From Callorhinchus milii (lineage: Eukaryota), in NCBI RefSeq assembly GCF_018977255.1, contig NW_024704742.1, positions 101,682,001-101,746,000 of the forward strand: 64,000 nucleotides of DNA, written 5' to 3'. Shown one piece after another: positions 13,309 through 54,726 of the stretch. The position numbers and the translations under genes were made by a program. The notes below the pieces were generated by a model, which saw nothing but the letters and a program-made list of their open reading frames with translations, was not told where the DNA came from and searched no databases. How positions within the stretch are numbered: position 1 is the stretch's first letter; every line of letters begins with the position of its first letter.

Positions 13309-13874
13309 TTATATATTCCCATCGTCCAGCATTTTGTTCACACCATTACAAATTTTATGCAGATTATTTTTATAAAGTCCAAAAGGATTGTACAGTGCAG
13401 CCAAGAACTCACAATCCGCAAAGTGATTAAACACATGATTGATACGTCCGTGTGACTTGGCAGTCAAATGGCGCTGGATGACCTGGTGCAGCATGTCCCT
13501 GCATTCGTTCAAAAGTTTGGACAGAACATTGCGGTCAAAGGTAAAGTCAACCTGATGGAAACTGACAATTGTCATAGCTAGCTGGTGAAGCTTCTTCTTG
13601 AACTTCTCCATCAACATTGTCTCTTCATCATTGAACTGGTTATTTCGGAACAGGACTCCCAGTTTTATGACCATCTTGATGAGATTTTTGATGATCTTCT
13701 CTGCCTCCTTTTTGTTTTGAGTAAACTCCTTGGTTGTTTTATAAAGCTCATCTAAGACTTCACTGCTGTTGTCATCAACCAATGCTGTTGCTATTGACTT
13801 TGAAGCCATCTTCCCAAGTATTTTCTTCTGAGCCTGGACAGCCAGACTTTTGGAATTGAAGACCTCAGTGGCCA
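13309..13874 (-). CDS. TNFAIP8: TNF-alpha-induced protein 8 (TIPE family), main/last coding exon, phase-1 acceptor
   Basis: Translates (x)[44 protein letters not shown]...[31 protein letters not shown]...NKMLDDGNI*. This closely matches vertebrate TNFAIP8 as I recall it (ATDVFNSK N-terminus, ALYNPFG and MLDEENI C-terminus). Acceptor on minus strand cccttctgtgtttctttttcag|TGGCC, AG at 13876-13875; stop TAA 13311-13309; 566 nt = 2 + 188 codons. Confidence 0.96.
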
Positions 13875-14034
13875 CTGAAAAAGAAACACAGAAGGGATTA
13901 AACACACGATAGAAAACTATGATAAGACCAGGAATGCCTCCAGGTTTTTGTAAATTCAATCTAAATGTGTACAATACAATCTGCTCTTATTTCACAGCTT
14001 TTAGAAAATAGGACATAAGTTTGCGTTGTAAACC

Positions 14035-14230
14035 ACAACAACCAAATTGCATTTGCATAGCACCTTTCACATTGGGAGGATGTCCAATCAGTGTTTCGGA
14101 CCCGAGCTGATGGTCGGGATCGGGGAGTGGGGGAAAGTAGGTGACCGAAGACACGGTTGAAGAGGAGGGTCTTGAGATGGGTCTTGAAGGAGGCGAGGCG
14201 GAGGTACTGCGGGATGGAGTTCCAGAGGGT
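14035..14230 (-). mobile_element. L2 3' fragment about 160 bp from the TNFAIP8 acceptor
   Basis: LWNSIPQYLRLASFKTHLKTLLF and tail. Confidence 0.8.
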
Positions 14231-14619
14231 GTAAAGGGTAATTTCAGGACAGTCACTAGAAAGTTTTACTTTACCAAACGGGTAATCAATGACTAGAATA
14301 GATTGCCAAGAAGGGTGCTTGACATTGAAGGCTAGGGTACTGGACTCATTTAAAAAGCAGCTTAATGCAACCATGGGGAGAACGGTAGGGTGGGTTTTCT
14401 GGAGGGGTGCAATTGGATCGGCCAAAGGAACCTTCTTCATCTAAACCAATCTTGTGATCTTGTGTGATCTATTTTTTATTTTATTTTGCAGGTGTGCAAC
14501 ACCATTGACTCACCGCCACACATTGTGTTACACTACTCATTCAATTCTACAAAAACAGGCCACCTGGGTTAGTATCCTGCTGGGTTAATTCCTTTTCTGC
14601 CCATTTCCACTCCTGAAGA

Positions 14620-14860
14620 TACTGACTCTTGGTGCTAATAGCAACTCCTCCGAGTTCATGTGTGAACCCAGGCAGTGAGTACAGTATGAGTATCAACTGT
14701 GGGAACACTTCAGCACAGCCAAATCTGATCCCTACCAAAAGTCAGCATCATTGGATCAGGAGCAGGAGTGGCTAACATCTCCCCTGCCGAACCCAGTGAT
14801 GTTGAGTTCAATTGTTGTAACCCAAATGCTATTTCTGAGATGAGGTAACAGCACAAACTA
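14620..14860 (-). mobile_element. Ancient AmnSINE2-like element
   Basis: Reverse complement contains ctcctgctcctgatcc, ggctgtg, actcactgcctgggttcacacatgaa, resembling the AmnSINE2 consensus as I recall it. Confidence 0.5.
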
Positions 14861-15633
14861 TCCGTCAGCACTTCAAAATGGTAGCCAATGTGGGAAAGGC
14901 AAAATAGCCGACTTCCAGGTTACTGCCAACATCATTTCATTTGCGCAAGTGCCATTGACCCCATGACATTTTCGTCAGGGGCTATACGGCACTCTGAAGA
15001 TTCGAAAGATCTATTGCCCACTCTTTAGACTTATTGGGTTAGGTAAATGTGGAGGTCCACACCTCAATTGCGCTATAAGTCAACCTGTGTTATAATGAAG
15101 CACAAACCTAAGGTTCCCTGTAAACTCTATGTTACCAGTAGCTAAATGGGCAGAACTTGACTTCTGGTTTCCATTCTACCCATGCAGAATGTTGTGCTCA
15201 CTGTGGAAAGATTACAGACTGGAATTATATTTCTTCGGTTAATGTGTACTTAAGGATAACTGTAACTCAACAAAACCTTATTTGCTAAATGGAACCTTAA
15301 ATCCAACCTCAGGAAAAGGTCCCACAGCTGCAACTCAGATCAGTTTGAATGATCTTACAAATTGAGGAAGGATTTTACTTGCATAAACTTATTATAGTAT
15401 AATCTCAGTTGCCAAATCTCATTTCACCTATCTTTACTTCCTGATATTCAGAAACGAAAGATGTAATACACATCAATCCTAGTCTTTACACACAACACTG
15501 TCAATTTTAGGCACCACAACAAGAATGTTCAATATATTTTCCTCCTTGCTTAAAGCTAAAGTATGTTTTTATTTAGCAGTTTGCTTGAAGTTGGTGCTAT
15601 GCTGACAAAGGGAAATCAAGGGAGTTACATTGC

Positions 15634-15849
15634 ATTCCACACACCTAATAATATTCCCTCCAAAACAAAACAATAATAATTTGGTCATTTTCAATCCACG
15701 ACTGTTTGCGGGACACTGCTGTGCGCAATTGGCTGCTACATTTCACCCACAAATATATGGTCAATTCACTTTACAGCATATTCTGTGAAGCGCTTTGATA
15801 GGTTGAGAAGATGTGAAAAGCGCGATATCAAATGCAAGGATTATTATTA
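15634..15849 (+). mobile_element. 5'-truncated copy of the short SINE subfamily
   Basis: Matches from ccacacacctaataat to ggattattatt. Confidence 0.85.
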
Positions 15850-16139
15850 GTAGTAATAGTAGCTGTCTATTTCACCACTATTACTAGTGTCCAATGTTTT
15901 ATAATTCTGTTCATGCACAGAACATCCAATGCCATTGTGTTACATACAGGAATGGCATCTTTGTGTGCAGAATGAGTATCATATATCATCAGGATTTATC
16001 AAACAGGAATAATGTACTTGGAGTGTGGTTCAGGCATCAACACCATCATGTAACCCCATAGTGCAGCAGGTAGCATAATATTACCAGTCATCTGTGCCTG
16101 GAGCAACTGCAGGCTGTTCAATTGGAATATCAGCCTGAC

Positions 16140-16556
16140 CCTGTTGGCAGCACTTTCTCACCTCTGAGTCAGAAGGTTATGGCTTGAGCCTCATGTCAAG
16201 GTTTTGAGCTCGCAATCTATGCTGACATTCCAATACAGTGCTGGGAGAGAGTACATTTTTGGAGATGTTGTCCTTAAGACATTAAACCAAGGTCCTCTCT
16301 GCCTGTTCAGGTGGATGTTAAGAATCCAATGGCATTATTTGAAAAGAGAGGGGAGTTTCCCCAGGGAAGGGATATTCTACAGATTAAATTGATCATTCAT
16401 ACCTTCATAGCTGCTTATCAGATATTGCTGTGTGCAAATCGACTGCCACATTTGCCCACAAAATACACAGTTACTACACTTTACAGCAAATCCTGTGATA
16501 CACTTTGAGACATCCTCCTAAAATGAAAAGCGCTATATCGATTGCAAGGATTATTA
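16140..16556 (+). mobile_element. Old SacSINE1-like DeuSINE
   Basis: ctctgagtcagaaggtt...gcctgttcaggtggatgttaag...tail. Confidence 0.78.
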
Positions 16557-16984
16557 AATAGTTGTTACTAATGAAATAACCCAGAACACTACACACATCA
16601 TCGATTGAGCAGAGTTTGTGGTGTTTCTAGCAATGTGACGAAAAGACACACTTTACAGATCTGAAAGCCTGTATTACAAAAAGGTAATTTGCGCAACTGC
16701 AAAACCATAGAAATTTACTGCACAGGGAAGGTCATTTGACCATCATGTTTGTGTTGGCTTTTTTAAGAGCAATCTTTTCAATTCCATTTACATATCCTTT
16801 CTTTAAACCCTTGCAGTTTACCATTTAACACAGTTTATTTGCAACTAGTGTCTGTGCAACATTAAAGACAGAAAGATAGGACCAGATAGGATATAAACTA
16901 GCTTTTATGAATCTAATCAGTAAATCAAACAGCATCTCGTACACAATAGTATCTTATTTATCATTTTCTGGCAAGGCTGGGGTC

Positions 16985-18545
16985 AATGGAGCACCTGGTC
17001 CCTCGACCCCATCCCTACCCCTCTCCTCACCTCCCAGCTCCACCACCTCACAGACATCATAAACCTGTTCACTGGCACCATTCCCGCCCCTCTAAAAATG
17101 GCTGTCACCACTCCTATCCTCCCTGGATCCATCCCTGCTCTCAAACTACCACCCCATCTCCAACCTCCCTTTTGTTTCCAAGGTCCTGGAACGAGTTGTT
17201 GCTTCTCAGCTTTGTTCCTTCTTCTCCCGCCACTCCCTTTACGGACCCCTCCAATCACGTTTCCATGCTGTCCAATGCACAGAAACAGCTTTGGTCAAAG
17301 TGACAAATTACATTTTGTCCATCTGTGACCAGAGCTCCCTCTGACTCCTCGTCCTCCTTGACCTCTCTGCTGCCTTTGATACGTTGAACATTCTATCCTC
17401 CTCCACCGCCTCTCCTCTCACCTCAACCTTCATGGTTTTATCTTGAAATGGTTCAGATCGTACCTCTCACACCATCTCAATTTCATTTCCACAAACGGTT
17501 TCTCCTCTAGTCCCCGCACCGTCTTGTGCGGCATTCTTCAGGGCTCTGTCCTTGGTCCCTTTTCAATATCTATATGCTCCCTCTTGGTGACATCATCCGC
17601 AGACATGGGGTCAACTTCCACATGTATGCGGATGACACCCAACTCTATCTCTGTGCCTCCACCCTTGACTCCAGGACCACTGTTGTCCTGAAAGAATGTC
17701 TGTCAGACATCAAGTCCTGGATGAGAGCTAACTTTCTACAGTTGAACGTCAACAAGACCGAAGCTCTCCTGATTGGCTCCTGTCAGAACCAGCACACCTC
17801 AGGAGCTGACAGCATCACCATCCAAGATGCACACTCCACCTTACTAAGCCAGTCGGGATCCTTGGCATCTTGTTTGACCAGCAAATATCCTTCCTATTAC
17901 ACATCCATGCCATGACCCGCTCTGCCTTCTCCCACCTCCGGAACATCACCCGGCTCCGCCACCGTCTCACACTGCAGGCCAGGCTCGACGATGCAAATTC
18001 CTTGCTTGTCAGCCTACCCAAGTCTTCCCTCCATGGCCTGTAGATCATCCAGAACTCTGCAGCCCATGTCCTCTCTCGCACCAGGCTCCACGACCCTATC
18101 ACCCCCATCCTCGACGGACTCCATTGGCTTCCCATCACACAGAGCCTATATTTCAAGATCCTGGTCTTCACCTTCAATGCCGTCCAAGGTCTTGCTCCCC
18201 ATTGCCTCTGCAACCTCCTAACCCCCTACCAATCTGCCCACTCCCTCTGCTCAGAGGGCTCCGGACTGCTTCTCGTCCCCCACCTCGCCCACCCCACCAT
18301 TGAAGGTGGGCCTTCTGCCACCCAGACCCTACCCTCTGGAACTCCATCCCGCAGTCCCTCTGCCTCGCCCCCCTCCCTTGTCTCCTTCAAAACCATCTCA
18401 ATATCCTCCTCTTCGACCGTGCCTTTGGTCACCCTCCACCCTCCCCAATCCCGACCCCTAGCTCGGATCCGAAACACTGATTGTCCAGCACCTTGGGATG
18501 TCCTCCCGACATGAAAGGCACTATACAAATGTAATTTTGTTGTAG
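16985..18545 (+). mobile_element. 5'-truncated L2 LINE with RT remnant
   Basis: QGSVLGP, FHMYADDTQLY, FLQLNVNKTE; L2 3' tail gggatgtcctcccgacatgaaaggcactatac. Confidence 0.9.
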
Positions 18546-19068
18546 TAATTTCTTTAGCTCTAGTTTATCGAAACTGGAGGTGAAGGGCAGGGAGGAGTTG
18601 GCAAGAGAGATTAGACAAGATTTTATTTAGGGAAAAGCACAAGCGTTAACTTGATTCTGGTTCTGTGCTGCAACATTCTAGGAGGAGAAATTTCACAAAT
18701 CAGGGGAACTGCACTTGATACCAGTAAACCTGTCTTTTTTTAAAACTATTTTGTAGCTAATAATTCTAAAATTATTGGTCTCCAGGACACAATGAGCTCT
18801 TGTGGGTAAAATCTGTGACTGGGATATACGCCTGAATTCCTTTTCTATTGTCTGACTAGTCTGTGGTATGACACAATAGATGAATTTCACAATGGAGATT
18901 TTTGTTAAGAGAAAAACAAACACTTATTGATACACACGTCTTCAAAGTGGATGACCCGAAACCACACACAGAGTTTACACACCCCAGTGACTTATTTTGC
19001 ATAACAATTTGTGGCAACATAATAGGTTTAAGGTTCCATTCCAACAATTTATCTCTAGAATTTCCATG

Positions 19069-19311
19069 TGTAGGTGGGATGCATGGAATTCTGTTTGCTT
19101 TGGATACTCTTAAGCATGGTGATGGGTGTCCTCATTTGTGTCCGGAATTAGGTAAACAGGATGCATCTCCCCAGGGAGAGAGTTCGCATTCAATTCTAAT
19201 ACATAGGTATTTCCATATATGTAGGTGGGGAACTCTCAGTTTGGTTTGGGTACTCTTAAATATAGTGATGGGTTTCTGGATGTGTCAGACACCCAGCTGA
19301 CTAAAAAAAAA
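19069..19311 (+). repeat. Unclassified dispersed repeat (two partial tandem copies); related copies at 42293-42450 and 58150-58245
   Basis: Shared motif ggaa..ctcagtctggtttggatactcttaagcacagtgatgggtttc...gtcagccacctggctgacc. Confidence 0.7.
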
Positions 19312-21689
19312 CATAGATTTACCGATTCCAAACAAGATTCCTTAACAAGTTAAGCTTGTTTGCAAACTTCATTCTGTGGTGTCAGTTCCACCCCTTTCCC
19401 TTGAGTAGTAAAACAATCAGTGCAAAATGGGGAATCCTTCCAGTAAGCAGATTTACATTACACAACTCAACTCCAAAACAATCTACTCAGGAGAAGAGTT
19501 GACCATCATGATTTCTTTTTCTTATGGAATCCCATTAAAATTCTGCATTTTAAACCCCAATATGTGTGCAACTAGCTGCCGCTTTTCACCCACAAAATAC
19601 AGTGTTTACTTTACAGAAGTTCCTGTGAAACACCTTGAGATGGCTCAATGACCTAATAAGGTACTATATCAAATGCAAGGATCTGTATTATTATATGTAT
19701 GAAGTGTAGAACAAACTTATATTTTTCTTCTTCTCATTCCTCACACTACAGAAAGGGGTACTGATTTAATGCCTAACAGACAAACTGTGTTTAATCTGAA
19801 GTGCTAGTAGAAAGATAAAAAGAATAAAATTTGTAAGAGTACCAAAAATATGTCATGCATTTTCAATTACACGTGACCAATGTTACTGATCAAATTCTTT
19901 AATGGAAAAAGCATGATGCATACTTCTGTAACTGTATTTTCTTCCTCTGTGTCTATTTAGGATCTGTAGAATCCCATTTCAAGTAAATCAAAACAATATT
20001 TTAATGTGACCTTTATTCTCTGATAAAATACCCGACATTTCACAAGATCCCCAGCTCTTGAACATCTTAAAGCATTTTGCAATGTTTCTGTGACATGCAG
20101 TGATGATGTTTTTGCAGAAGCTTGTTGTATTCTGGAGAATTTCAGCACAGGTTAAAGCCAAGGTATGAGGACCACCGTGTGCCCTTAGGGATACTGTTTG
20201 AGTTTAATTAGCTAAAACCGCACAGCTTACCATTATAGAGCACTGCCGAGCTTCTGCTACTTGCCCAGCTAGGGCCATCCAACCCATTATAAGTACTCCA
20301 AAACGTTACTCCACATGAATAAATACAAGTTGTTGTTGTTAGGGCTTTGGCTCTCAGGGTTAATAAGAGCAAAGCAGGAAGAATCCCAGCCCTGAGTGGC
20401 TTATGTGCTTCTCAAAATTCTGCCAATGCGTCAAATTGGCTGGTCCATCATTAACTGATCCTGGAGTACTGCAGACCTGCTGAGCTCTGGTTCCATACCA
20501 CAGAGATAGCTACCTACACAGGATTGACTTGAATTGCACTATGAAGCATATTATATTATGAACATTTGTTATACTGTACAGTTGATTCAACACTACTTTT
20601 TCCAGTCAATTGAAGAATGTGTGTGGCAGCTTGAATATGTATAAAAAATTTTAATTTAGAAATGACTACATTACATCTGTACCCATCTGATAACAGCTGT
20701 TACTAATCTCAACTAAGATCCTTCCTCACAGTTTCACGAAAAGCAGAAATGAGATTTACCACAAACCCTTGTGACTCAAGTGTCCCATTTGTCAGTTAAA
20801 CATATCAATGGAATGACACTGTGACAGTCTGCCGCTGAAAGGTCAGTTTAACTAAAGTTTACAGATAATGCATTTCAAAAATGGGAAATGCTATTCAGCC
20901 TGTGGAGACAGTTTGCCAATTTATTTTATCATTCCAGATCTTTTAATTTTCCTATTTTCTCTATAAACAATAATAGTCTTACTACCCAAATATCTATCTG
21001 ATGGAAACTGAGTTCTCATTCTCATTCACTATCCTCAAACACTGCTCAAAGTATGTTTGAACTCAGACCATGTGAACAAGCTTGACAATGATGCACACCT
21101 AATATTCCTTGTTCTGGCTGGCTAACAGCCACATGCTGACCATGCAATTGTGTTCCAGCACAAGTTGCAAGAGGAAAAGGGAAGTAGAGAAGGGGAAAGG
21201 GCAATATCCTCAGTTAAGTTTACATATGCAGAACAATCTTTTGAAATCATAGACCTCTAATGAGGAAAGGGTCCTGTGGTAAACTGGAAGTCTGTGGACG
21301 TCAACGTACATGTACGGTCTCCCTATTTACTTCCAGTTTCTAATTTAACAAGTTCCGCATTAGAGAAACAGAAATATTTATACAGGGGCAGTCAATTCTG
21401 AAGTATGAGAAAATAAACAAAAGGTAAAAGAGAAAGGAAAGCCTAAAGGAAGAAAACGGAGTCATAAAGAAGTACACATCTCACGCTCCTATTTACTGGG
21501 TGAGGGTGTCTTGTATTTCTGCAATCTTTGGGACTCATCTCTTCATACCCTCAGATGTTCCAGTGAAGTCTCTAATGGAGAGAAATGGGGTGGGGGTTGG
21601 AGGAGAGCATTGGGTCATGTATACTGGAATGCCCAGCTCAACAACAACAAGTTGCATTTCTATAGGATCCGTCACACAGGGTAGAGTCT

Positions 21690-21990
21690 TGGTTCGCTTA
21701 TCAATATCATATTTCGACACCAAGCCAGGGAGGAAAGGGGAGGTGACCATACACACAATTAAGCTGAAGACGGGCAAAAAAGGGGCAGGATGACGTAATT
21801 GAGACAGGACGTTCCAGAGGTCTGTGTGTGGTGGCTGAAAGCATGCTTGCCGATGATGGAATTGAGTGGTTGAGGGACATGCAGCAGGCCCAAGCTAGTC
21901 GAGCAAAGAGGTAGGATAGAGGAGTAGGGTGTGAGCAGGTTTGAGAAGCAGGGAGAACAAGGGCATTACGTAATTTGTAGGTGAATGCTG
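21690..21990 (-). mobile_element. Old L2-like fragment
   Basis: Degenerate similarity to the L2 3' ORF region (acgttccagagg, ggtggctgaaagc). Confidence 0.55.
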
Positions 21991-22004
21991 ATTCTCCATC
22001 CAGA

Positions 22005-22275
22005 ATTATAGAATCATAGAATTTTACAACACAGAAGGAGGGCATTCGGCCCATCGTGCCTGTGCTGGGTCTTTGAAAAAGCTATCCAATTAGTCCCACT
22101 CCCCACTCTTTCCCCACAGCCTTGCAAATGTTTCCTTTTCAAGTATACATCCAATTCCTTTTTGAAAGTTGCTACTGAATCTGCTTCCACCAGGCTTTTA
22201 GGCAGTGCATTCCAGATCGTAACACCTTGCTGTGTAAAAAACTTTCCTTTCATCTTCCCTCTGGTTCTTTTGCCA
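22005..22275 (-). mobile_element. CR1 3' end
   Basis: (ATAGAATC)-type tail; FFTQQGVTIWNALP. Confidence 0.85.
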
Positions 22276-23099
22276 GAGAAGGTACTTTAAACACAAATTA
22301 ATCTCTCCAGACATTTCTGTAAGGTAATGGCTGGTCTGCTCTTTATTTGCCCTCCTTTTACTTGATGTTCTCCCGACGTGAAAAGCGCTATATCAAATGC
22401 ATGGATTATTTGATTATTATGTTCAACAGTGAATGACAAAAGTTCCACTTCCACATCATTGACATCTTTCCCCTTGATAGCACAAAAACACTCGAGTTAC
22501 TTTCAGAACAGCAAGTGAACACTTAAGTCACTTCTAGAACAGCAAGTGCTTTAAAACAATTTGACCAAGATGTGCTTTTATAGCAAAGTCCCACACTTGC
22601 CTCCCTGGCAACCACATATACATTTTCCCAGCAGGAGTAGCTAAAAGGCGATTAGAGATGAAAGCCTAGATGATTGTTCCCTCTGTAAACTAGCAGTAAT
22701 GTGGCTTTATAGCTACACTACTCAGTGTCATATTTTGTAATGTTTTTACCCATTGAACCATCAGGGTGGTGGGGGAAAGAAAGGGCAACTGTATATTTAG
22801 TTTTTAAAGCTGCAACTGCTAGTAAAATGTTACATTTTTCAGTGAACTTGCTAATACAGTATCTGTCAGGAAGCCAAATGGATCAATGAACAAGCATGCT
22901 CAAGAAACTGGGTGCTAATTCATAACTAAAAATGAAAGGAAACACGGAAACAGCTGAAAGGATTCAGTGCACATGTGGGAACCAATAATAATTTAAATAA
23001 AATTAAATGTACTGTATATAGCGAACATCACAGTAATTTAATCTGCAAGTATCTGATGGAAGAGACTTAGTAATATCTATTCTAGATGATGGTTTTTGG

Positions 23100-24984: not shown

Positions 24985-25370
24985 TCACTTCAGTTGGTAG
25001 CACTCTCGCTTCTTTTACCAGAAGCCCTACATCAGAACATGGAATGCATATAGTCTAAGCTGACACTCTAATGCAGTGCTGAGGTGGCTGCATTTTTGGA
25101 GGTACCATACTGTATGTAAGTCATTAAACAAAGGTCCCATTTGTCTGTCCAGGTGAATGCTAAAGATCCCATGGCACTATTCATAAAGAAAATAGAGTTT
25201 AACCTGGTGTCCTGACCAACAATCCCCCAAATAAAATTGGTCACTAACTTCATGTACAATTGCTGTGTGCAAATTGCCCACTGCACTTTATAGTATATCA
25301 TGTGAAGTGCTTTGCGATGTCATGAAGACGTGATAAGGCATTATATAAAATGCAAAGATTATTATTATTA
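24985..25370 (+). mobile_element. Old SacSINE1-like DeuSINE
   Basis: cagttggtagcactctcgc...caggtgaatgctaaagatcccatggcactatt...tail. Confidence 0.75.
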
Positions 25371-26134: not shown

Positions 26135-26388
26135 TGCTTCCACCCTCTGGAACTCCATCCTGGAATCCATTTGTCTCACCCCCTTCCCTTGCCACCTTTA
26201 AGGCCCATTTCAAGATCGACCTTTTGGACCGTGCCTTGGTCATCCTCCCACCTGCACCCCCCCTTGCCCACCACCCCTCTTGATTCCAATTCCCCCACTC
26301 AGATGTAAACTCTTGACTGTTCAGTGGCCTTGGGATGTCCTCCCAATGTGAAAGGCCCTATATAAATGCAGTTTGTTATTGTTGTTGT
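26135..26388 (+). mobile_element. L2 3' fragment
   Basis: ctctggaactccatcc...gggatgtcctcccaatgtgaaaggccctatataaatgc. Confidence 0.78.
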
Positions 26389-26688: not shown

Positions 26689-27283
26689 AAACAACAACAA
26701 CAAGATTTAATTTATAGAGCGCCTTTCACGTCGGGAGGATGTCCCAAGGTGCTGGACAGTTGGGTCAGGACCCGAGCAGGGGGGAAATGGTCAGGGTGAT
26801 GGGAGTGAAGGGAGGAAGCGAGGACGGGGTAGAGAGTCGAGAGGGGAGCTGAAGGCACGGTCAAAGAGAAAGGTCTTGAGACCGGCCTTGAAGGAGGAAA
26901 GGGAGGAGGCGGCGAAGGCACTGGGGGATGGAGTTCCAGAGCCTGGGGGCTGAGAGGCTGAAGGCCCGGCCAACGATGTTAGGGCGGTTGGGGCGGGGGA
27001 TGTGGAGCAGACCGGAGCCAGAGGAACGGAGGGTACGGGCAGGTAGGTAGGGGGATAGTAGGTCGGAGAGGTAGGAGGAAGCAAGGCCATGAATGGCCTT
27101 ATAGGTGAGGATGAGGATCTTGAATTCGATCCTCTGGGGGATGGGAAGCCAGTGGAGGCGAGCGAGGGTGGGAGTGATGTGGTCGTGAAGCCTGGTGCGG
27201 GACAGTACACGAGCTGCAGAGTTCTGAATGACCTGCAGCTTGTGGAGGGAGGTGCCGGGAAGGCCGGCGAAGAGAGACTCGTT
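26689..27283 (-). mobile_element. Young L2 3' fragment
   Basis: LHKLQVIQNSAARVL...HITPTLARLHWLP...; near-identical to 6334-6778. Confidence 0.9.
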
Positions 27284-28879
27284 CACAAACTGTGGTGACT
27301 GGGTATCAAGGGCATGGACATGGATTCAGAATTGGTTGAAGGGAAGGAGGCAGAGAGTCATTGTTAAGCCAAAATGGGGGAAGAATTAAGTGTAGTCCCT
27401 CAATGATAACAACTTGCATTTAAATAGCATCCTTGATTCTTGTAACATCTTGGAGGACTAAAAAACCTCTTAGGGGTTTGTAATGGATCCCTTCCTGTTC
27501 CTTGAAAACATTAATTCATACTGGATTCACAGATGCAATCTATAGTTGAATTTGCAGATGAGACTACGTTAGGGGGATATGTGGCACCAAAGATCTTACA
27601 AAGGGTACACCACCAACCAACACTGAATTGGAGTGTCAGCCTAGACTATGAGTTTGCACCCCTGACGTTGGGCTTCGACTCACAACCTTCAGACTCAAAG
27701 GCGAGCCAGGCTGACACATAATTTTGAAGAGAGATGCCCGTGGACGTAAACAAGTGTCAGGGACCAAAAGTAGCAAGCAGAACCCAAAAGATGGAACCTC
27801 ATGGAGCAGATCCTATGATGTTTAACATACTCAGAAAGGAGGACCTTTTATTTCTTCTCTAATACCACTGGTTTTACACATACTTTCCCAGAGAAGGCTG
27901 TGTCCATCTCCACCTAATGTAAGAACAGCTGAGATACCCATAGCATGAAGTTCACTTACGGACCTCAAGTTCCAGAAAGGAATGATTAGTGGTAGGGGGC
28001 TTCTGCAGCGAAAATGATGGCACTTACTTCGAACCTCTGGTACGAGGCAATGTTTTTCATTTCTCAATCTTCAACAAGTAGAACATATCCAGTTAAATTA
28101 AATCTTTGTGGAACATTCTTTTAATGTAAAATCAAGTCTGATTTAACACTGGATCAATCATTTATAAAACTATGTAAGAATGTCAGGAATCACTGACATT
28201 CTAGAAAATTTAAAAAAAGATAAATTATTTAATTTAAGCTCAACTAGTTTCACTTTTAATCAAAGGCAGCACTGAAGTCTGTGACTTCACTTTTCCTAAA
28301 AATCTTGTGGTTTTCATACCGTGGGGGCAACAACAAAACCCAGTTCTCAGCACTGTGAACAGAAAACAACTTCACACACACACACATGTGCATGAGTACT
28401 GCCGGTCTGCCTCTATGTTTCTTCTGATATGGAAGAGCAGATTGAACAGTCAGAAAACAAGATGAAAAGCAAGCCATTGTGTTCCCAAACTTTTAAACGC
28501 CTCTGTTGAAAAAGCCAAGTTAAAAAGCAGATTACACAGTGTTCTGGCACAATAGAAAGCACAGAATAAAGGACTGAATTCTGTAAGCATATCTCAAACC
28601 CATTTATAGAGTTCACTAGCATCAGAGGCACCACTTGATTACTTTTATTTTGCAGTTTTTCAGTATCTTCTCCATGGTTGCATTGTTCAGCAACACAAAT
28701 TCATCATTTAAATAAACTTCTGCCAACTTCTTAACTATTCTTGCGGATTTCCTGTAAATCAAAGGAATTACTTGTATCTGCTATAATTCCTCTTAACTTA
28801 ACAAACCCATATACAGTCATGTCCTGTGTCCCTTTCGCAACTCAGAAGTATGCAGTCATAGTGCATAGGCAGTACTGAA

Positions 28880-29172: not shown

Positions 29173-31057
29173 TATCCTAAAATCATAGAAATAACAGCAC
29201 AAATAGGTCATTCGGTCCATTGAGCCCAAACTGGTAAGTTCTAGTTTGTGCACTGGATATAACTGCTCTGATCCTAACTCCCTTCTCTTTCGTGGTGCTC
29301 TTTTCTATTCTTCCTCTTCGAACACTTATCCATCCTCTTTATTCCACAAATTACCAAGAAAAATAAAGAAAAACAATTCACTGAAAGTCCTGTCTGGCTG
29401 GTTGTTATTGGATTTTTTTTAATTTTAAAAGACTTTACAGAGCATTAAAAAGATTATCGTGTTACACAGCAACATTAGCTGAGTAAGAAAAGACTCAGTT
29501 GTTTTGTTAAATGCATCAAAAGATCTACACGAGTTCCTGAAAATAAATAGCCAGATTGTCAGAACACTTATATCTGAAAGGCTTTCTTATTTGTATTACT
29601 TTCACTGTACTCCATTTAAATACCAGCTGTAGGCATAACCCTTTTCCAGAGTTACAGGAAAAAAAGGCACTAAAACAAAAGACCTTTCATTTGGAACACT
29701 GCCATCACGACTCCAGGCTCGTAATACCAATCTCAAGTCTGACTCTTACTTAGCAGTGGCTACATAGGCACTTATTTTACCAACTGATCACAGACAATAA
29801 AATGTTCAAATGATTCCTGTGCAGAATCCAGCTCCCTTCACAACTATACCCGCTTATCCCCCTCCATGCACACATACTCACACACAGAAAAGCTGCCTCT
29901 CTATTAATTTCAGGTACTGTGGCTTAGCAGCAATAAATTTATCAGAAACAATTTCTTCTTTAAACCCTTTTGGTGCAGCCTATTTAAAGCAGAGAGGACA
30001 TACCTTCTTTTGGTTCATCGGTCTCCAATCCCATTGTCGAACTGATATTACACTCAGTTGAGATATTCGCCATATCAACCTTGCAAGCTTGCTGCTATCA
30101 CATCAATCTTTACATGTACACTCAGAGGAACAACTAAAATGACCAAAAGAAAATTCCTTTAACCAGTTTCTAAGGAAGTGGGCAAAGATGCAATGTTGCC
30201 TCAGTTATGTACGTCTGCTTCACTTCATGATTTTAAGCAATCATCCCTCCCTCTAACTCACACAGGGTGGAGTCAACTTGTCTCCTTTCCAAGTCCCCTT
30301 TCCAGCGAGCGATAAGACCGACAACTGTACAACAGAGGCCAGCAGGGGTATATACCAGTCATTGCTTTCCTTTAACAGTTCTCCTATTGCAGTACAAGAT
30401 TCCAGGCGTCTGCAGTCACCAGGGGCAGGACTAGGGGAAATAAATCGCATTCTTTTACAGCTAACTCAAACCACACCTATAACCACCACAAACTATTTGG
30501 AAGGTATGCTGTGACTCCAGAGCACAGGAGCGTTCTCACACTGAATCAGGAAGATCTTGAGAACTAAAGCGCGGTTGGTTTTGTTGGCTTTAACATCCCA
30601 GAGGTTTTACTACAGAATGGTTACCAGTCCAAGATTTTTTTAAAAACAATACCTTAAACTATCTGCCCCAAATAGCATATTGTGGACATGCAGGAAAATA
30701 AAACGAAACACTGTCATATTTTCATCAGGGGAAAGGAGGGGTAAAAACGGTTGACTAGTAAAATAGCTCTTTTTTTAAGATCACTTACATCCTTAAAACT
30801 GAGGCTTCACTGTTGTAGCAGATTTGCAAAGTTCACAAAATCTAAATACCATAGTATTAATACAATCATACAATCACAAAATTCAGAGAAGTACGCCACG
30901 AATAAGCTTCAAACAGACAAATTCCTCAATAGAAAATTGAACATAACAAGTTTTTATGAATTGAAAAAAATGAAAGTTAGGATCTAAATGCCATGGACCA
31001 GTTGTTGAGTTTTCAGTAAGTTAGCCAGCGGCTATCATTACATTGATTACATTACAT

Positions 31058-40225: not shown

Positions 40226-41030
40226 CCAAGTATGAGTTAGCACCATCAACAGAGAAGAGATAAGGAAGGAAAATAATGGAAGTTAAATTTGCTTTTTTGT
40301 TTGTTTAAGCATATTTTTGTGTACACTAATATATTAGGTTGAGTTCCATGGTGAAGCAAAGGCAAATGTAACAACGACAGATCCACTACACAAATGTGAC
40401 TCTGGTGATAATGAGAGCGCAGAAAGACTGGAAGAAAGTGTTCTGAGGCATCAAATAACAAGTCAGATTTTCCATAATGAATCCAAAGTCCAGCAAAGAT
40501 GATCTTGCCATTAGGGTAAGACTTGCTGACTTACACAAAATAAACCAAACCCACAAATAATAAATAAATGTCTTACTTTTTGGATCACGCAGATGTCCCT
40601 ATAATAGTGCTATACGATGTCTGAAGGTCACATATAAATATCGATCTGTATTCGATGGTGGTGTAGCCTGGGACTGAAAGATAAAAAAAATGAACAAATT
40701 AGTTGCTAAATATCTGGTACAATATGTTATATTTGAAACTGCAATTTGGAATTGGAATGGAATCTCTCTCTTAATCTGGTACTCTTTGTGAGATTATTAC
40801 TACACTTTGCTATAATTTTTCAAAATAAACAGTTGGAGGAGAAATAGCTAATTAAGATTTGAAACTTACATTTTGAAAGAAACAGCTGAAAATCAGAAAT
40901 GAACAGTACAGTTAATATCCCCAAAGGCTTCCAACACTAGATGGCAACAACACCTTTGGTGCACTTCATGTCCCAAACAGCAGAGCAACATATTAATGGC
41001 ACAATTATTTTGCAGAAAATACATTACAAC

Positions 41031-45389: not shown

Positions 45390-45780
45390 AACAACAACAA
45401 CAACAAGATTACATTTGTATAGGGCCTTTCACGTCAGGAGGACATCCCAAGGCGCTGGACAGAGTACAGCATTTCAGACCTGAGTTGGGGTCAGGGAAGA
45501 GAAGGGAGGGGGAGGGGAAGTGGGGTAACCGATGGCATGGTCGAAGAGGAGGGTTTTGAGGTGGAACTTGAAGGATACTAAGGAGGGGGCGAGGCGGAGT
45601 GATTGGGGGATCGAGTTCCAGAGGTTGGGGGCAGAGTGGCTGAAGGCTCTCCTGCCAATGGTGGGGCGGGTGGGTCGGGGGACGTGGAGCAGCCGGAGCC
45701 GGCTGAGCGGAGGGGTTGGTAGGGGGTTAGGAAGTCACAGAGATAGGGTGGGGCGAGATCATTGAGGGCTTTGTAGGTGA
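45390..45780 (-). mobile_element. L2 3' fragment
   Basis: TYKALNDLAPPYL; L2 tail. Confidence 0.85.
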
Positions 45781-45805
45781 TTATAATAATAATAATAATA
45801 ATGCT

Positions 45806-46001
45806 AAGGCAAAATGTTGCAGATGCTGGAAATCTAAAATAAAAACAGAAGCTGCTGAGAACACTCACAGGTCAGGCAGCATCTATGGAGAGAGGAAAGT
45901 GAATTAACATTTCAGGTCGATGACCTTTGAATGGTCACTTTGCTCTCTCCATAGATGCTGCCTGACCTGTGAGTGTTTCCAGTAACTTCTGCTTTTATTT
46001 T
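45806..46001. mobile_element. Penelope-like-derived inverted-repeat element with 14-bp TSD
   Basis: Arms 45836-45902 and 45935-46001; TSD ATAATAATAATGCT at 45792-45805 and 46002-46015. Confidence 0.72.
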
Positions 46002-49000
46002 ATAATAATAATGCTTAACTTAGTATAGTGGCTTTCATGTCAGGAGGCCATCTCAAAGCGCTTCACAGGATATTCTGTAAAGCGCATTGACCGTATGGGT
46101 TTTGTGGATGAATGCAGCAGACAATTCGTGCACAGCAATAGAATGAGTTCATCAGTTCATTCACCAGGCATCATACATACACATGCACTGTTTACCACTT
46201 AATAATCCTTTCCTTTGACATAACGTCTTATCATGTCGTTGAGACGTCTCGAAGCGCTTCACGGAATAAACTGTAAAGTGAATTGTAGGCGAAACGCGGC
46301 AGCCAATTGTGCACAGAAGTGTCACACAAACAGTCGTGGATTGAGTGACCACATTTTTTTAGTAACAGTTTTCAAAATTGAAACACATTTATAAAATAAC
46401 AGTGATCATTCAGAAGCTTATTTGCTCACTTGGAAAGATCTGAGAAGTGCCATGCAATTGGCTTAAAATTAATACACACCATCCTTTTGTTTCATTATAA
46501 CCGTACAATACCAACCTGTGAAGGTTTGTGGGCCCTAATTGCCAAAAGATCATAATTTCAACATGTGAATGTAATTTTTTTCTAGCTCCATTTTAGATTT
46601 CCCAGCTTAAAATGAACCGTTTGTGCATTTTACAGTCAATCCGCTTAATTTCAAATTCCTTTAAAGTCAGCATTGTATTTCTATTCAAAGATTTTGAATG
46701 AGCCCAGTATTTTTAAAGAGATGATTTACACAAATATCTTAAATCTATTCGCAAAGCCCTACATTTAGGGAATGTATTTGTAAGAGTATGTACGAAAGGT
46801 ACATTGGAAAAAACATTTATAATAATAATCTTTGCATTTGATATAGTGGTGCCTTATCATGTCATCGAAACATACCAAAGCACTTCACAGGATTTATTGT
46901 AAAATGCAGCCATCGTGTAGCAAATGCTACTGCCAAATTGAGCACAATGACCATGACATGAACTCGCTTTACTTTTCAAGGAGTGTAACACGATCTTTAA
47001 TGTGCACCTTTTATTGAAATGTTAACAATTTTATTGAAAGAAAAATCATCACAGAGAGTAAGCTTCAGTAGAGGTGGCGTTAAAAACTCCTGTATGTACT
47101 ATAATTAATAGTCTGTAATAACCTCGAGTACCAGCAAATCAATTATCAAAGTTCATAAGCTTCTACCTCCTTCAAACTGTACAATTAGTCCAAAGTTTCT
47201 TTGGTTCTGTACTCCACTCACAGAAAAATCAGATCAGAACAGTGTAACACTGGGGAAAATTCTGGGGAAAAAACCTTCCTCAGTTATATTCTGCCCGTTG
47301 TTTGTGTTACCAATCTGATCATAATACTGGTTAATAAAGGTCACATACAGGCCCAGTGAGGCAAGTGAAAAAATATCCACTGGTCTTGTGACCTGGTCTC
47401 GGGCTGGATTTAAAGCTGATCAAGGACTTGATGTGAAACATCAGTCATTCAGAACAGTCACAGACGTAGAATTAAGGACAGTCATAGATGGGTAAAAGTA
47501 GGTATCATCAGCATTTGTTCACCTACAAAAAAAACAGTAACTACACTTTACTGTGTATCTGACAAAGCACTTTGAGACTCCTGACATGAAAGGTATTATG
47601 TCAAATGTAAGGATTATTTTTACTTATGAATTAATCATGAACATCTCTTTTTACTGGTAGGGGATTCAAGGAAAAATGCCATCAATTCATGATTGTGATA
47701 CGGTGTGTAAAAGGAGAATTTCTGCTTTCACATCTCTGCTGTTAGAGCAGAGTCTATGGTTCTATCGTAATGGAAGCTAGTTCAATGTTTGCTGATGATG
47801 TAACCAAAGTGCAGCATGTAAATCAGAAACACAAAATGACAAAGGATAGAGCACTAATGTATTTATTATATGAGAAATGAGTTGGACAGTGAAATCAACA
47901 CCTAATGAAGCCAAACTTACATTTACAACAGATGACTTTGGAGGCTCAAGTCAAGAAGTCATTAGAGGAGCTGTATTCATTAGAATAATAATAATATTTT
48001 CATTTGATATAGTACCTTTTACTATATGGGACACTGCTGTGCCTGATTGGCTGCATGTTTCGCCCACAAAATGTACAGTCTATTCACTTTACAGTATATT
48101 CTGTGAAGCGCTTTGAGACGTCTTGAAGACATGATAAAGTGCTATACAAAATGCAAAGATTATTATTATTACCTTTAACATTTCTCCTTTCTCTTTTCAA
48201 ATAATTCCACAGGATCTTTAGCATCCATCTGAACAGGCAGAGAGGACTTTGGTTTAACGTCTTATCTGAAGGACAGCACCTCTAACAATTCAGCACACAT
48301 CCAGACCTGCGTAGGGTCAAGGGTTTTCAACCAGTCGGCTACCGCTATGTGGCGCTCTCATGCACAATTAAAAAGACAACAGGAAGGAACGATAGAACTG
48401 CTATTGAGCCAAGTTGAATATGAAGCCAGGTGCTCAAAATATTTCTTGCATCTCAAAAAATATATGCACTTTAATGTTTAAACTGTGATAAATATCGTTG
48501 CCACCACTTATTTTTGAGCATGTGTGAGAATCTATCTAGAGGTGATCAACCAGTTGGAGACCTTTGACCTACAGATCATATGAGTTCAGAGTCCCAATGT
48601 GAGGCTTGAACTCAAAACCTTCTGACTCAGAAGCAAGAGTGCTTCCACTGATAAAGCTGACACACAGGCTGATTGTATTGACACAAATAGGAATGGAACT
48701 AGTAAACATGGTGCAATGGAGCTGGGCTATGAAAGTTAAGTAGGACAATGGAATTGTTAAAAATGTGAAACACAGTAGAGATCCAGGAAGAATTTGAGAC
48801 ACAGCAAGTCTAATTCAATCAGACAGGATGTCATTGTTGACTTTGTGTTTACTGGTGCATTGTACCACCAAACAGTATTGTACAGTAGAGTCAAAACAGA
48901 GCAACAGCATCTATACCAAAGAATGTAGAATGAAAATTCAATCCTGGACTGCGTTGATAAATCATTTAAGATCGAAATTTCCAAACATTCAGTACCTAGA

Positions 49001-50517
49001 GGTTGATGCCCTGGAACTGCAAGCAGAGATGTGCTTCATCTGCTGTAGCAATAGACAGCTTGGGTTTACAAAGGATGGTACACACTTCTGAAGGTCATTT
49101 AAGGTTTAAAGCTCCACCTAGTCCCTTCTATATACAGTCAATTCACTTTACAGTATGTTCTGTGAAACGCTTTGAGGCGTATCAAAGATGTGATACTGCA
49201 TGAGAAACAGTTGTGGAGGCCAGGACATTGGATGTATTTAAGAAACAGATCAATGCTGTAATGTTAAGATGGTAGAGTTGATATTCTGCGATCATAAGAA
49301 CAAACAGACTGAAGTCACGTCTCTTGTGATTCTGTATTGTAATGAGTGAAAAGAGATCTTTTCTGCTAGGAGCCATTATCAAATTATACACAGAAAATAA
49401 ACAAAAGGGAGCAAAGAAACCCTTCAGCACGCAACACTGGCCTAACTCAAATCATGACACATTGCAAAGCCACCTCTAAACCTATTTTCACTCATTTATT
49501 AATTGTAAAAGAGCAACATACACAGGTGTCAGTGTCTCGTGGGGCAGTGCAGATCAGGATCCCAGCTGTAGCTCAGGGTTCGCAAATCCACAGACAAGTT
49601 TGTACATGTAGCACAAAAGAAGTTTCTAAAAGTCCCCAAGGACAAACTCTTAACACTTCAGTTTTCACTAAACGATAGCAACAATTCATAGCAATTGATA
49701 ACACATAGCTATCTTAGGTCACCCAGTCAGTTGAGCACTGGACCTGGACCTGGAGCAATGCAAGGATTATTATTATTATTATTATATTATTATTTCCCCA
49801 TTTCACCAAAACATGGCAGAATTTATAATCCCTTTCCCCATCTTTTCTCATCTCTCGATACCTTCCTTTCCAAGTCTCTAACTTTATGGCTGTCTGAAGC
49901 TACATTCCCATTGTACAACAATGTCTGTTGTGGTGCTAGCTCCCCCATTGGAACCTTCCAATCACATCCTGTTCCCTGCTTCATACAGGAACTGGTTTCA
50001 TGCAGATGGTAGTCACTAAAATGGGAAGTATTCTTATAACATCTTTCAATCATACATACAAGTACCATAAAACAGCAACCAATAGATAATAATGTATGCA
50101 GTGGGTAGTCACTGTTATTTTATCGAGCATGGCCAGGTGGAAATGGGATTTGGGTGCCAACAGAAAAATTATTAAATTTTTAACATGCTTTTTTTTCAAA
50201 GAAACTTCTGCCAAAGAATTTTATGAGGTTAGTCAGACATTGAGCTGTGGTTGAAGCAAATAGCATCAATGTATTTAAGAAAAAGAATGCATACGTGAGG
50301 GAGAAGTGAATAGAAGGATATAAGAGAAGGGAATAGGAGGGGTGGTGTCCAGTGTGGAACAGTTGAGGTGAGTGGCCTATTTCGTTTGCATCACTCTATG
50401 TAACACAAAGCCTAAAGCTAACTTCAGAGAACTTAGATTTCACAAGTTTGCAAGACACGTAACATTGGTGATGCCAGTGCCAACCGAGTTTCATTCTTGT
50501 CAAGTTTCAGCAATTGT

Positions 50518-50792
50518 AATATAATAATAATCCTTGCATTTGATATCGTGTTTTATCACACCATCGAGGCATCTCAAAGCACTTCACAAGATATACTGTC
50601 AAGTGGAGTGACTGTGTGTTTTGTGGGCGAAACGCAGCAGTTAATTGCGCACAGCAGTGCCCCACAAACAGTCGTGGATTGAGTGACCAAATTATTTTTG
50701 TGAAATTTGAAGGGTTTATTACCCCCCGGAAAGTGATCGGCCAATCGAGTAGCAACTGGGTTCCTACTTAACACTAGATAAACAGAGGCGGT
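50518..50792 (-). mobile_element. Long-form SINE, 5'-truncated
   Basis: Tail, Deu and central segment. Confidence 0.8.
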
Positions 50793-51534
50793 GTTCATTT
50801 TCTTTTTTTTTTTGAAGGGATTATGTTTCAAAGCGCTTCATTCACCTTGAGAGGATTTACTACAAAGAGTGCAATTGTCGGCGAAACGTGGCAGCCTGTT
50901 TTGCACCTGTCATTTGTCAAATAGACAATTAAAAAAACTGGAACTACTTGTACAATAAGCATTATGTCTCCTTCTGAAATGTGTATGTACACAGTTTATG
51001 TAAATCTTAAAATGCTTTTTTTGAAAGCAACAGTAAAGCCATAAATATTTCAACAGCAACTCAGTTGATTGCATGGAGGATAATACAGAACTAGCAGATG
51101 ATGTACTCAATTCAGCTGAGGAAATTCTGGCACCATTATATCTGTGTACTGCTAAAGTAAGCTCCTCAATTGATCTACAGTACTACCCTATCATTTTCAG
51201 ACTACATGCTTTAATCCCTTACATCCTGTTATTCTTTAGATATGACAAGTTGAATGCAAGGTACTGGCAGTATTTTGTAGTCAAGTCACAAAGATTTGAT
51301 GAACAGCTTAAGCCCCCACTGTAGTTTGAATGACAAAAGTGAAAGAGTAATAATGATGGAATGACATAGATTTTAATGCATGGTATCAGATGTATAGGAT
51401 TGCAGTTATAGTAGTTTGTTTTACTGCAATGGCATTGTAGAAATCAGGTGGTGTCTGATCTCTGGTCTGTTTTGAGTTAGCCAATTATGCCCAGGAGGCA
51501 GTGGGGCCCATTCAGTAACAGAAGAGAAAAAGTA

Positions 51535-51851
51535 AATAATAATAATAATAATCCTTGCATTTGATATAGCGCTTTTCACGTCTTCTAGACGTCCCAAAGC
51601 GCTTCACAGAATATACTGTAAAGTGAATTGACTGTATATTTGTGGGCGAACACGGCAGCCAATTGCGCACAGCAATGTCGCACAAACAGTCGTAGTTGAA
51701 AATGACCAATTTATTATTGTTTTTTTTGGAGGGATTATTATTAGGCGTGTGGAGTAAGGAAACTTGCCCAAGGTTTCGCCCTGCCTGGAATTGAACTCAG
51801 GTCTCTCACTTGCAAAGCGAGTGCTCTAACCACTGAGCTACAGGACTCCAC
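51535..51851 (-). mobile_element. Young tRNA-derived Deu SINE, full length
   Basis: Same consensus; tail loop TAGAA. Confidence 0.92.
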
Positions 51852-51994
51852 ATGTAAAGATATCTGCCAAGCTTCCTACTTCTGATTGATATTCAGTGCC
51901 CCCTGTCGGAAAGTGCTTGTTTAAATATTAGGTTTACCTGTGTAAAGTAACGTAAAGAACTGTAGGTTGGATGGAATCTGTAGAACCATACATA

Positions 51995-52212
51995 AGCCTG
52001 AGTCCCCTTCTTTTCCTTATTTACGTGCGCTCTCTTGGTGATGTTATCCACATACATAGGGTCAACTTCCACATGTATCGTGATGACACCCACATCTACT
52101 TCTCCTCCTCCAGCTACAACTCCAGGTCCACTGATGTTCTGTCAGCTTGCTTGTCAGATATCAAGGCCTGGATGAGAGCAAACTTCCAATAAATGCAATT
52201 TGCTGTTGTCGT
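51995..52212 (+). mobile_element. L2 RT fragment joined to an L2 tail
   Basis: VNFHMYRDDT...CLSDIKAWMRANFQ. Confidence 0.75.
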
Positions 52213-54677
52213 TGTCAGCGAGCCCACCCAGAGGCAACGAGAATCACACTTTCTCCTGCTGCTTCTATTTCTGTTGCCACTGGAGATAGGATGAACACCC
52301 ACCTCAGTGTGAATCATAGAATTTCTACAGCACATAAGGAGGTTGTTTTGCACTTTCACCTACAAATACATAGTCATTATACTTTCCAGTAAAGAGCAGC
52401 ACTTTAAGGCATTGCGACCCGCGCCCAAGATGTTTCAACAAAGTGATAAGGCGCAATATCAAATGGAAGAATTATTATTATTTATTGTACTCATGCCGAC
52501 TATGAAAGATTTATCTCTTCAGTCTCACTCCCTTGCTCTTTCCCCGTATGCATTCACATGTTTTCTTTTCCAAAGCTATTTAAAAGCTATTAATGGATTC
52601 TGTTTCAAGCACTGTTTTAGTAGGGATTTCTATGTTCAAAAAGTGTTTTAACCTCTTCCTTTGCTTTTATAATGATCTTGAATTCTTGTCCTCTAGTTAC
52701 CTATCCATTCTGCGGTTTTCCACCCCAGCAAAATGCATTTAACTCAATAAACTATTTGGGGCAATGAACATCTTTGCAGCCTTATATAATGATATAATAC
52801 CTTTTCTTATTGGCAACAAAACAGCAGGAAAATACAGAGCTTTTGCTTTTAAAAAACAGTAAAAAATCAGGCTGATTCAAGGGAAATTCAGCCTGGGTAT
52901 AACACACTTTTTCAAGAATTACCTTCTGTGTTATTTCAACACAATCAATATGATTAGGGATGAAAAACTGAACTTTAATGGATGTAGAGGTTCCTGTCCA
53001 GGATGCAAACGTACCAATTTCCACTTGCATAAAAAGCTTTTACGGATCCTTTCAAAGGTACCCAAATACAATATGGCTTCAAATGCCTGGTCAATGCTCC
53101 TCTGTGTGTTCTGTACACAAAAGAAAAGACTTGATCAACATCTTGTGATCACGGAGGGGACGTTTCATAAGATACATTTCAGGTTATCATTTTAACTTGG
53201 GTTTGTTTCCTCAGTGAGCAAGATAATCTCTGAATTCTGAGTGCTATATCCTGGTACCAGTAATTGTGTTTATCCAAGTTTGTCTGTTGGAATTACAAAA
53301 ACAATGCAAATAATTGATGGAAAATCTAGTTTCCTGATATAATGGCCACGGCCAAACAAATGCTGAAGGTGTGGGGGATGTCCTGTTTATTGCTAACCAG
53401 ATCAAATTAAAGAACTTTCCTGCCAAAATAATTCCCAAGGCAATCGTTTCCAAATCTTGGAAGCTTTTGGCAACAGTAACATCCGAGCAGCGCACAATTT
53501 TCCTTGAATCTGTCTGATTATTTCAAATGACTTCATTGAAGTGCATTTGAGTAAAACTGTCCAATCCACTGGATAGTCAGTTTCATCATTAACCCCCAGT
53601 GTTACCTCAGCATATGATAACATTAGCATCTTTATTTAAAAAAAGTAAAAAATGGAAAATGCTGAAACTGAATAGGTTAATTGGTCAAGAAAAGAGAAAA
53701 TTAAGTTAATAATTTGCAGGTGACCCTTTGTGAAGAATTCTCAATGAAGCGTTAACCTTCCTCTAAAATATGAACCCACTGTCTTTCAATGCTGCATTTA
53801 GCTTATGGACACTTGAGAAATAGTTCTTAAGTAGCCAAGACAAAGGGCCTTCTGCATCCAAACTAATCCTGGGGTCTTGCAAAGAGGTTGGGGGATTGGG
53901 GGAGTAAGCAAATCAAATGGGTAGGGAGGTGTTATGAAAACTGGTAAGGACTGTTGTGCTGGCGATACAGAGTTTTGTGCGAGTGAAAATCCAGGATCAG
54001 TCATTTATATTGCTGCACAGGTTCCAGTTGCTTCCATAACCATCTGCAGGGGCAGTGGCACAACCTAGGTTATCTGATGGTATTACATTATGATGGTATT
54101 GCATTAGCATGGCAAGGCTGGAATCAGGGCTGTGCTATCAGTTATGAGGTTGATCATCGGGTGATGCATTTTCCGATTTTGGTTCAATGTTCAATGTTCC
54201 AACATTCAGACTTTCTACATTCAGTTTAAATCACATAACCCAGCAGAATATAATAAAAACTTGTCTTTCACATTAACCACACAAACAAAAAGCTGTTTTC
54301 TATTCACAAGTAACAAAGGATCCTTGCATATGAGTATTACTTTCTGTACACATCCTCCTTTCACACACACTGCAAAAATAATCATCTCACTTGACAGTAA
54401 TTACCTGTGAAGTGATTTGAGGCATTTTGACATGATTAGGCACAATGCAAAAGCTTATTCTTTCTCTATCACCATGATGAATGAACAACATGTGACAAAT
54501 CACTGTAAGTCATAGCTGTTACAGGTAGAAAAGGTTCAAATTGTTTATTGGTGATCCATGCAATATTTTCTTTAAATTCCATGCTATCCAGGGTTTGGCA
54601 GTGTGTCTGATTGATGTGTAATTGATACTAGGACTTTGAACTCACATAGTTCAGGCCAATGGTTCTCAAAGACTCAC

Positions 54678-54726
54678 TGGCGGCCACAGTGTGACTTTGT
54701 GTAATCTGTGTAATCACCTCTTTGAG
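54678..54726 (-). other. TNFAIP8: 3' part of putative TNFAIP8 upstream (first) exon supplying the A of the start codon; 5' boundary unknown
   Basis: Minus strand ...cactgtgGCCGCCA|GTGAGT: consensus donor at 54677-54672. Joining to the acceptor at 13874 gives GCCGCCATGG. No in-frame upstream ATG before the in-frame TGA near 55073. Confidence 0.7.

Follow-up and report, generated by a model that had tools for sequence, protein, structure and literature searches.

Introns that disrupt a start codon exist but “are relatively rare,” as stated by Nielsen and Wernersson (2006; PMC1626468). Among vertebrates, VAMP1 is an example in which the start codon is split as AT|G, according to the TOGA2 preprint (10.64898/2026.06.30.735536). 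Here we describe a split start codon in the gene TNFAIP8, which is carried on the minus strand of a 64,000-nt stretch of a 0.99-Gb assembly of the Callorhinchus milii genome (C1:101682001-101746000). This whole stretch is called the window, and positions are counted along it. As with start codons that contain introns generally, the interruption is a phase-1 intron in codon 1. Compared to other split start codons, however, the TNFAIP8 arrangement is distinct in that a single exon opening with TG is served by alternative 5′ exons, which end either in A to create the start codon or in G to create a Val codon downstream of an earlier ATG.

Human TNFAIP8 yields products of 198, 188, 210, 166, and 201 aa, has “highly variable” 5′ noncoding regions, and is discussed in human cancer work with respect to its short isoform, as described in a review (PMC6356598). 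Tetrapod TNFAIP8 likewise has one coding exon, variable N termini, and a 188-aa form that starts M-A-T. In human and other tetrapods, the 198-aa isoform 1 and 188-aa isoform 2 (MATDVFNSK...) are made from transcripts with different 5′ exons. Public gene models of Callorhinchus milii and many other species already imply the spliced start codon, and a literature search of limited coverage returned no published description of a split ATG in TNFAIP8.

A TNFAIP8 start codon assembled by splicing

The TNFAIP8 coding exon, counted to the end of its stop codon, occupies positions 13309..13874 of the minus strand. The acceptor reads ...ctttttcag and is followed directly by TGGCCACTGAGGTC, with T at position 13874 (the exon start is also written TGGCCACTGAGG, TGGCCACT, and ATGGCCACT). 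Thus, the boundary reads cag|TGGCC, the exon supplies the TG of codon 1, and no ATG occurs in it before codon 23. This agrees with an earlier, sequence-only reading of the window, in which a coding exon lacking an ATG was placed after ttcag.

Translation from position 13872 gives 187 residues (ATEVFNSK...MLDDGNI) followed by a stop codon at 13311-13309, and the whole conserved TNFAIP8 protein is encoded by this single exon. The TNFAIP8 domain (Pfam PF05527; E 2.1e-80) extends over residues 5-185 of the 187, corresponding to profile positions 1-181 of 181. Membership in the TNFAIP8/TIPE family is evident from a domain that runs across the whole protein and from 100% identity to proteins named TNFAIP8 by their sources. 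The identical proteins are also named Callorhinchus milii by those sources, and by this identity the gene is TNFAIP8 of a holocephalan.

An open reading frame (ORF) finder called a 221-aa product from position 13974 instead. That call starts at a TTG and runs through the polypyrimidine tract, and the sequence-only reading was right to regard it as a wrongful extension into the intron. ORF finders can miscall TNFAIP8 in this manner, and split start codons are easily lost in annotation.

Database records establish what the mature message encodes. A genome annotation on the same 139-Mb contig (P0002) gives a 188-aa protein that begins M-ATEVF and is 100% identical to the window product. Two entries derived from complementary DNA (cDNA), both with the source name Callorhinchus milii, have the same MATEVF start: P0122 is 188 aa in length, and P0003 is 206 aa with a shifted C terminus. 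Accessions AFM85482.1 and AFK11489.1 represent the 188-aa type among the cDNA records of this species, and AFK10585.1 represents a 211-aa type. According to these annotation and cDNA entries, the codon in the mature message is ATG. Because unspliced RNA reads caG|TG at this position, which is GTG, the recorded M-ATEVF proteins mean that an upstream exon ending in A must exist. We conclude that the ATG of TNFAIP8 is made by splicing an A onto TG, with a phase-1 intron inside codon 1. The part of the sequence-only reading that proposed a spliced ATG and a 188-aa MATEVF protein is therefore borne out by identical recorded proteins.

Gar, python, rabbit, and several sharks and rays likewise have 188-aa models with an M-A-T start. 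When we collected 92 vertebrate models carrying an ATEVF-type motif with a preceding residue, the residue at the split codon was M in 35 (as residue 1 in 19 of these) and V in 57, with no other residue represented. This alternation between M and V at one codon indicates that the same phase-1 intron is present across species.

A conserved noncoding exon as the probable source of the A

The sequence-only reading had taken the A from the string GCCGCCA|GTGAGT at positions 54672..54684 of the minus strand. This string is indeed present, with its last exonic base A at 54678, its GT at 54677-54676, and the preceding sequence running up to the A as ...ACTGTGGCCGCC. Joining it to 13874 would remove an intron of 40,803 nt and generate GCCGCCATGG. 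Comparisons with shark gene models favor a different exon.

The search space for 5′ exons was the window plus 60 kb upstream, or 124 kb in all, against which the N-terminal extensions of shark TNFAIP8 models were run by tblastn. Residues 23-60 of Scyliorhinus torazame X1 (P0010), which lie directly before M-ATEIF, match positions 40673-40560 (E 4.8e-6). Residues 28-55 of Heptranchias perlo X1 (P0132) match positions 40686-40603 in a different frame (E 7e-4). A match in two frames is as expected for conserved noncoding RNA. With queries comprising the sequence before the M, P0010 and P0132 score 32.3 and 28.9 bits, compared to shuffle maxima of 25.4 and 26.9 bits (0/200 shuffles reach the observed score in each case), and this site is the sole match for both in the 124 kb. 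We also searched with 29 vertebrate TNFAIP8 N-terminal extensions of at least 12 residues, and the only matches at E<0.01 outside low-complexity sequence were from P0010, P0132, and an isoform from the species itself. Used as a protein query, the first 56 residues of P0010 retrieved no entry other than P0010 itself.

This homology and the flanking splice sites delimit a 97-nt noncoding internal exon on the minus strand at 40577..40673, which we call exon A. Its acceptor, ttttttttatctttcag|TCCCAGG, is strong, and its donor, CCAAAAA|GTAAGA, leaves A at 40577 as the last base (the 3′ boundary reads ...CGTGATCCAAAAA|gtaagaca). The P0010 alignment begins at the first base of exon A (40673), and with a query that ends at the M it continues as far as 40581, no more than 4 nt short of the donor. 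Exon A is present in a single copy in the genome. In a spliced message, its end would stand 5′ of ATGGCC as ...CTGCGTGATCCAAAA (also written ...CGTGATCCAAAA).

We propose that exon A is spliced to position 13874 across an intron of 26,702 nt. The product would read AAAA|TGG, with A at -3 and G at +4, and would encode the 188-aa MATEVF isoform. An in-frame TAG at 40601-40599, eight codons upstream of the assembled ATG, closes the upstream frame, so that translation would begin at the assembled ATG, which accounts for the 188-aa product. The exon also contains a start-stop upstream ORF (uORF), an out-of-frame ATG-TGA at 40633-40628 of the minus strand.

The X1 models of both Scyliorhinus torazame and Heptranchias perlo have, immediately before M-ATE[IV]F, a stretch that shares homology with 40673-40577 and terminates at the same A. 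In Scyliorhinus torazame, this stretch covers 32 codons plus one base, as does exon A. The sharks differ in carrying an upstream in-frame ATG that lets the annotated ORF extend to 242 or 249 aa, whereas here the TAG closes the frame and the ORF begins at the split ATG. Mammalian A-ending exons, which are GC-rich and translate as ...RRRRA[TL]PP-M, show no similarity to either elephant-shark candidate, and exon A is AT-rich and internal, unlike these mammalian exons. Two shark models place a homologous A-ending exon before M-ATE. By this comparison the split-codon design is old, the A-donating exon having been kept between chimaera and sharks. This finding and the presence of M or V at the split codon in 92/92 models are in accord with the earlier suggestion that the split ATG is ancient. 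The gain over public models is small: the A is assigned to a different exon, and a conserved leader of 97 nt with a start-stop uORF is described.

Several points weigh against exon A as the source. First, among the 1861 A|GT sites within 110 kb upstream of the coding exon, its donor (GTAAGA) ranks 17th and the site at 54678 ranks 13th, as scored with a donor weight matrix. Second, exon A holds an upstream ATG (that of the ATG-TGA), compared to none for 414 nt at 54678. Third, the use of 40577 is predicted from homology and splice signals, and the shark models are themselves computer predictions that were compared as protein. Fourth, no first exon or promoter upstream of exon A was found when shark upstream-exon peptides were compared with the 124 kb, where regular expressions returned nothing and a two-sequence hidden Markov model scored 1.2 bits at best. 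No exon end of the C[NI]PD type was found by regular expression either, as this species has different residues there. Finally, at least two further A-ending 5′ exons appear in elasmobranch models (MVLLTW-M and MSWAHLSKSE-M), and a single species could therefore have more than one A-donor.

Given the homology and the splice signals, we assign a probability of about 0.7 to 40577|13874 being the junction that makes the ATG in this species. This figure and those behind our wording for the rival readings below are separate estimates, and their total slightly exceeds 1.

An alternative 5′ exon that ends in G

A scan for mini-ORFs of the form ATG...[GA]|GT identified another 5′ exon, the coding part of which lies at 30004..30073 of the minus strand. 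ATG codons occur at 30073 and 30034, and the exon ends as ...AAAGAAG|GTATGT and encodes MANISTECNISSTMGLETDEPKE. This product matches the first 23 residues of P0123 (23/23), a 211-aa protein represented both by a cDNA-derived entry and by annotated isoform X1. Because the exon ends in G, splicing would form G|TG, a Val codon, to give the 211-aa isoform MANISTECNISSTMGLETDEPKE-V-ATEVF..., or a 198-aa protein if the second ATG is used.

In its last ten residues, the encoded peptide is similar to M[GES]S[EA].[DE]E.KE-V, the motif with which the 198-aa isoform begins in other vertebrates. Models from rabbit, python, gar, and coelacanth similarly include a form of ~198-212 aa that ends its variable part as ...KE-V-ATDVF, like the 211-aa isoform described here.

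One acceptor is thus served by alternative 5′ exons, since the 211-aa protein needs 30073-30004 and the 188-aa protein needs an exon ending in A. These data support the conclusion that the choice of 5′ exon sets the N terminus of TNFAIP8. The earlier proposal that this choice gates the ORF holds to the extent that the N terminus is set by the exon, but it is not supported for whether the ORF is translated; both recorded isoforms contain the whole domain. The sequence-only reading had also named a G-ending coding exon as a finding that would count against its spliced ATG, if such an exon were the only partner of 13874. Such an exon does exist, although the A|TG product is recorded alongside it.

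Other possible sources of the start codon

One alternative is that the exon ending at 54678 is real but serves as a noncoding leader, either as the first exon or as an internal exon from the acceptor-like site ttctgcag|AGACGG at 55046. It would splice to 40673 and leave the start codon unaffected. An exon must lie upstream of exon A, which has an acceptor, and 54678 offers a strong donor on the right strand, 14 kb upstream of exon A, with no ATGs and with the acceptor-like site nearby. However, the N-terminal parts encoded by shark upstream exons match nothing at 54678 or elsewhere in the 124 kb. Moreover, a true CpG island at ~82.4 kb in extended coordinates, with the G-ending donor GACGAGAG|GTGTGT, is an equally good candidate. 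We consider the leader role for 54678 unlikely, and regard this exon and the distal CpG island with GACGAGAG|GTGTGT as the candidates for the first exon that precedes exon A.

The distal CpG island (L005:8380-8900) lies outside the window, ~68.5 kb upstream of 13874 and on the strand of the gene. It is nonrepetitive, with a CpG observed/expected ratio of ~0.9, and is followed by the GACGAGAG|GTGTGT donor, which is a good one, and a (GT)n run. A long C-rich tandem array containing ...GGCATG... is located just downstream. The island is possibly a promoter, either of TNFAIP8 or of an unannotated transcript.

A second alternative, which we judge to be quite improbable, is that the first exon ending at 54678 joins 13874 directly, whether as the principal route or in addition to exon A (for instance, when exon A is skipped), to yield GCCGCCATGG and a 188-aa protein. 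The site combines a consensus GTGAGT donor with an optimal Kozak string, and the several distinct A-ending 5′ exons in elasmobranch models make a further A-donor conceivable. The sequence-only reading held that the Kozak context made 54678 stand out, but the motif occurs at chance frequency. Specifically, the 124 kb contains one minus-strand and two plus-strand copies of GCC[AG]CCAGT and two minus-strand copies and one plus-strand copy of [AG]CCAGT[AG]AG, and 12 of the 1861 A|GT sites score higher than 54678. None of the 29 N-terminal extensions matches the region at 54.6-55.1 kb, and a conserved A-ending exon exists elsewhere, at 40673-40577.

The GC-rich setting of 54678 had been offered as further support, and among the seven A|GTRAGT sites upstream of 13874 in the window it is the only one in such DNA. 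However, the GC-richness is that of a 44-bp tandem repeat (6.1 copies, 267 nt) at 54727..54993, which makes the local GC peak beside the candidate donor. CpG islands were taken as nonrepetitive DNA with GC of at least 0.5 and a CpG observed/expected ratio of at least 0.6. The interval at 54.7-55.1 kb has a GC content of 0.61 but a ratio of 0.53 and includes the 267-nt array, and thus no CpG-island promoter was identified there. The nearest ATG upstream of 54678 is at 55092, with an in-frame stop at 55074. The resulting 414-nt ATG-free stretch favors the site, but is due in part to the tandem repeat. Weak copies of the sequence at 54945-55092 occur at other places in the genome, and a high-copy SINE-like (short interspersed nuclear element) sequence with thousands of genomic candidates adjoins the region at 55175-55300.

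Sequencing runs X1, X3, X6, and X15 were compared over 54000-55170; among runs holding the coding exon, none is on record as RNA and ten are guessed to be RNA. X3 covers the region like the DNA-sized run X15 and includes a 367-nt contig (54390-54756) that passes unspliced across 54678. No loose contig end was found at 54678 within 54000-55170, where X1 and X6 gave no cover and X3 is DNA-like. In addition, one X3 contig carries A in place of G at plus-strand position 54682. This CpG transition converts GCCGCCA to GCTGCCA, so that a base of the Kozak string is polymorphic in one run. Most likely, GCCGCCA|GTGAGT at 54678 is a chance look-alike beside a tandem repeat, and at most it marks a candidate upstream noncoding exon. 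The claim that the A comes from 54678 over a 40.8-kb intron is therefore not supported, given the lack of homology, the chance motif count, and the polymorphic Kozak base, and is probably wrong.

A third alternative, that neither 40577 nor 54678 is used and another exon, within the window or outside it, supplies the A, is allowed by the 12 higher-scoring sites on the donor matrix and by a region examined that reaches 60 kb beyond the window, but is very unlikely given that none of these sites has homology support and that a minus-strand WD40 exon at ~96.5 kb suggests that another gene occupies the region from there on.

Paralogues and the age of the intron position

In two TNFAIP8 paralogues of this genome, the coding exon likewise begins with TG. 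At L002:1400-1480 (G000:C26), an acceptor-like ...ctctcacaag is followed by TGGGAGCGGAG, and at L003:1300-1370 (G000:C157), ...tccctgcag is followed by TGATGGAGAGT, in which an ATG follows at once. The occurrence of TG-first exons after acceptor-like sites suggests that the intron position may predate the duplications that formed the TNFAIP8 family.

We speculate that the TG-first exon could be a family-wide “socket” that is ~400 million years old, wherein the last base of the 5′ exon determines the product. An A would give the 188-aa protein, a G would give Val and a protein of 198-211 aa, and any other base would lead to initiation at Met23 and a protein of 166 aa. The choice of exon would then be a selected translational switch, and several 5′ exons, perhaps including that at 54678, would be kept A-ending by selection. 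Three paralogues in this genome all have the form acceptor|TG, all 92 vertebrate models have M or V at the split codon, and elasmobranch models include at least three distinct A-ending exons. Although these observations are consistent with the idea, we regard it as doubtful.

Repeats and neighboring sequences

A SINE-like element is present at ~14040-14100, just upstream of the coding exon, and is related to the one at 55175-55300. CpG-island calls at 6.3, 26.7, 45.4, and 65.3 kb were rejected as promoters, as they are copies of one dispersed repeat with a GC content of ~0.61 (window 6300-6900, 26700-27400, and 45400-45900; L004:1200-2000). Three of these copies are 95% identical over 445-588 nt, and the fourth is ~70% identical. 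Calls at 99-101 and 104.7-106.7 kb were also rejected, because they overlap reverse-transcriptase ORFs.

The WD40-repeat exon (Pfam WD40, E 1.4e-10) is located at L007:2432-2698 on the minus strand, ~82 kb upstream of the coding exon. Comparison of this exon with solved structures returned generic WD40 proteins only. Reverse-transcriptase fragments (RVT_1) of long interspersed nuclear elements flank the region, at 56300-57900 (minus strand) and 63306-63854 (plus strand) of the window and at L007:3700-7400 (plus strand).

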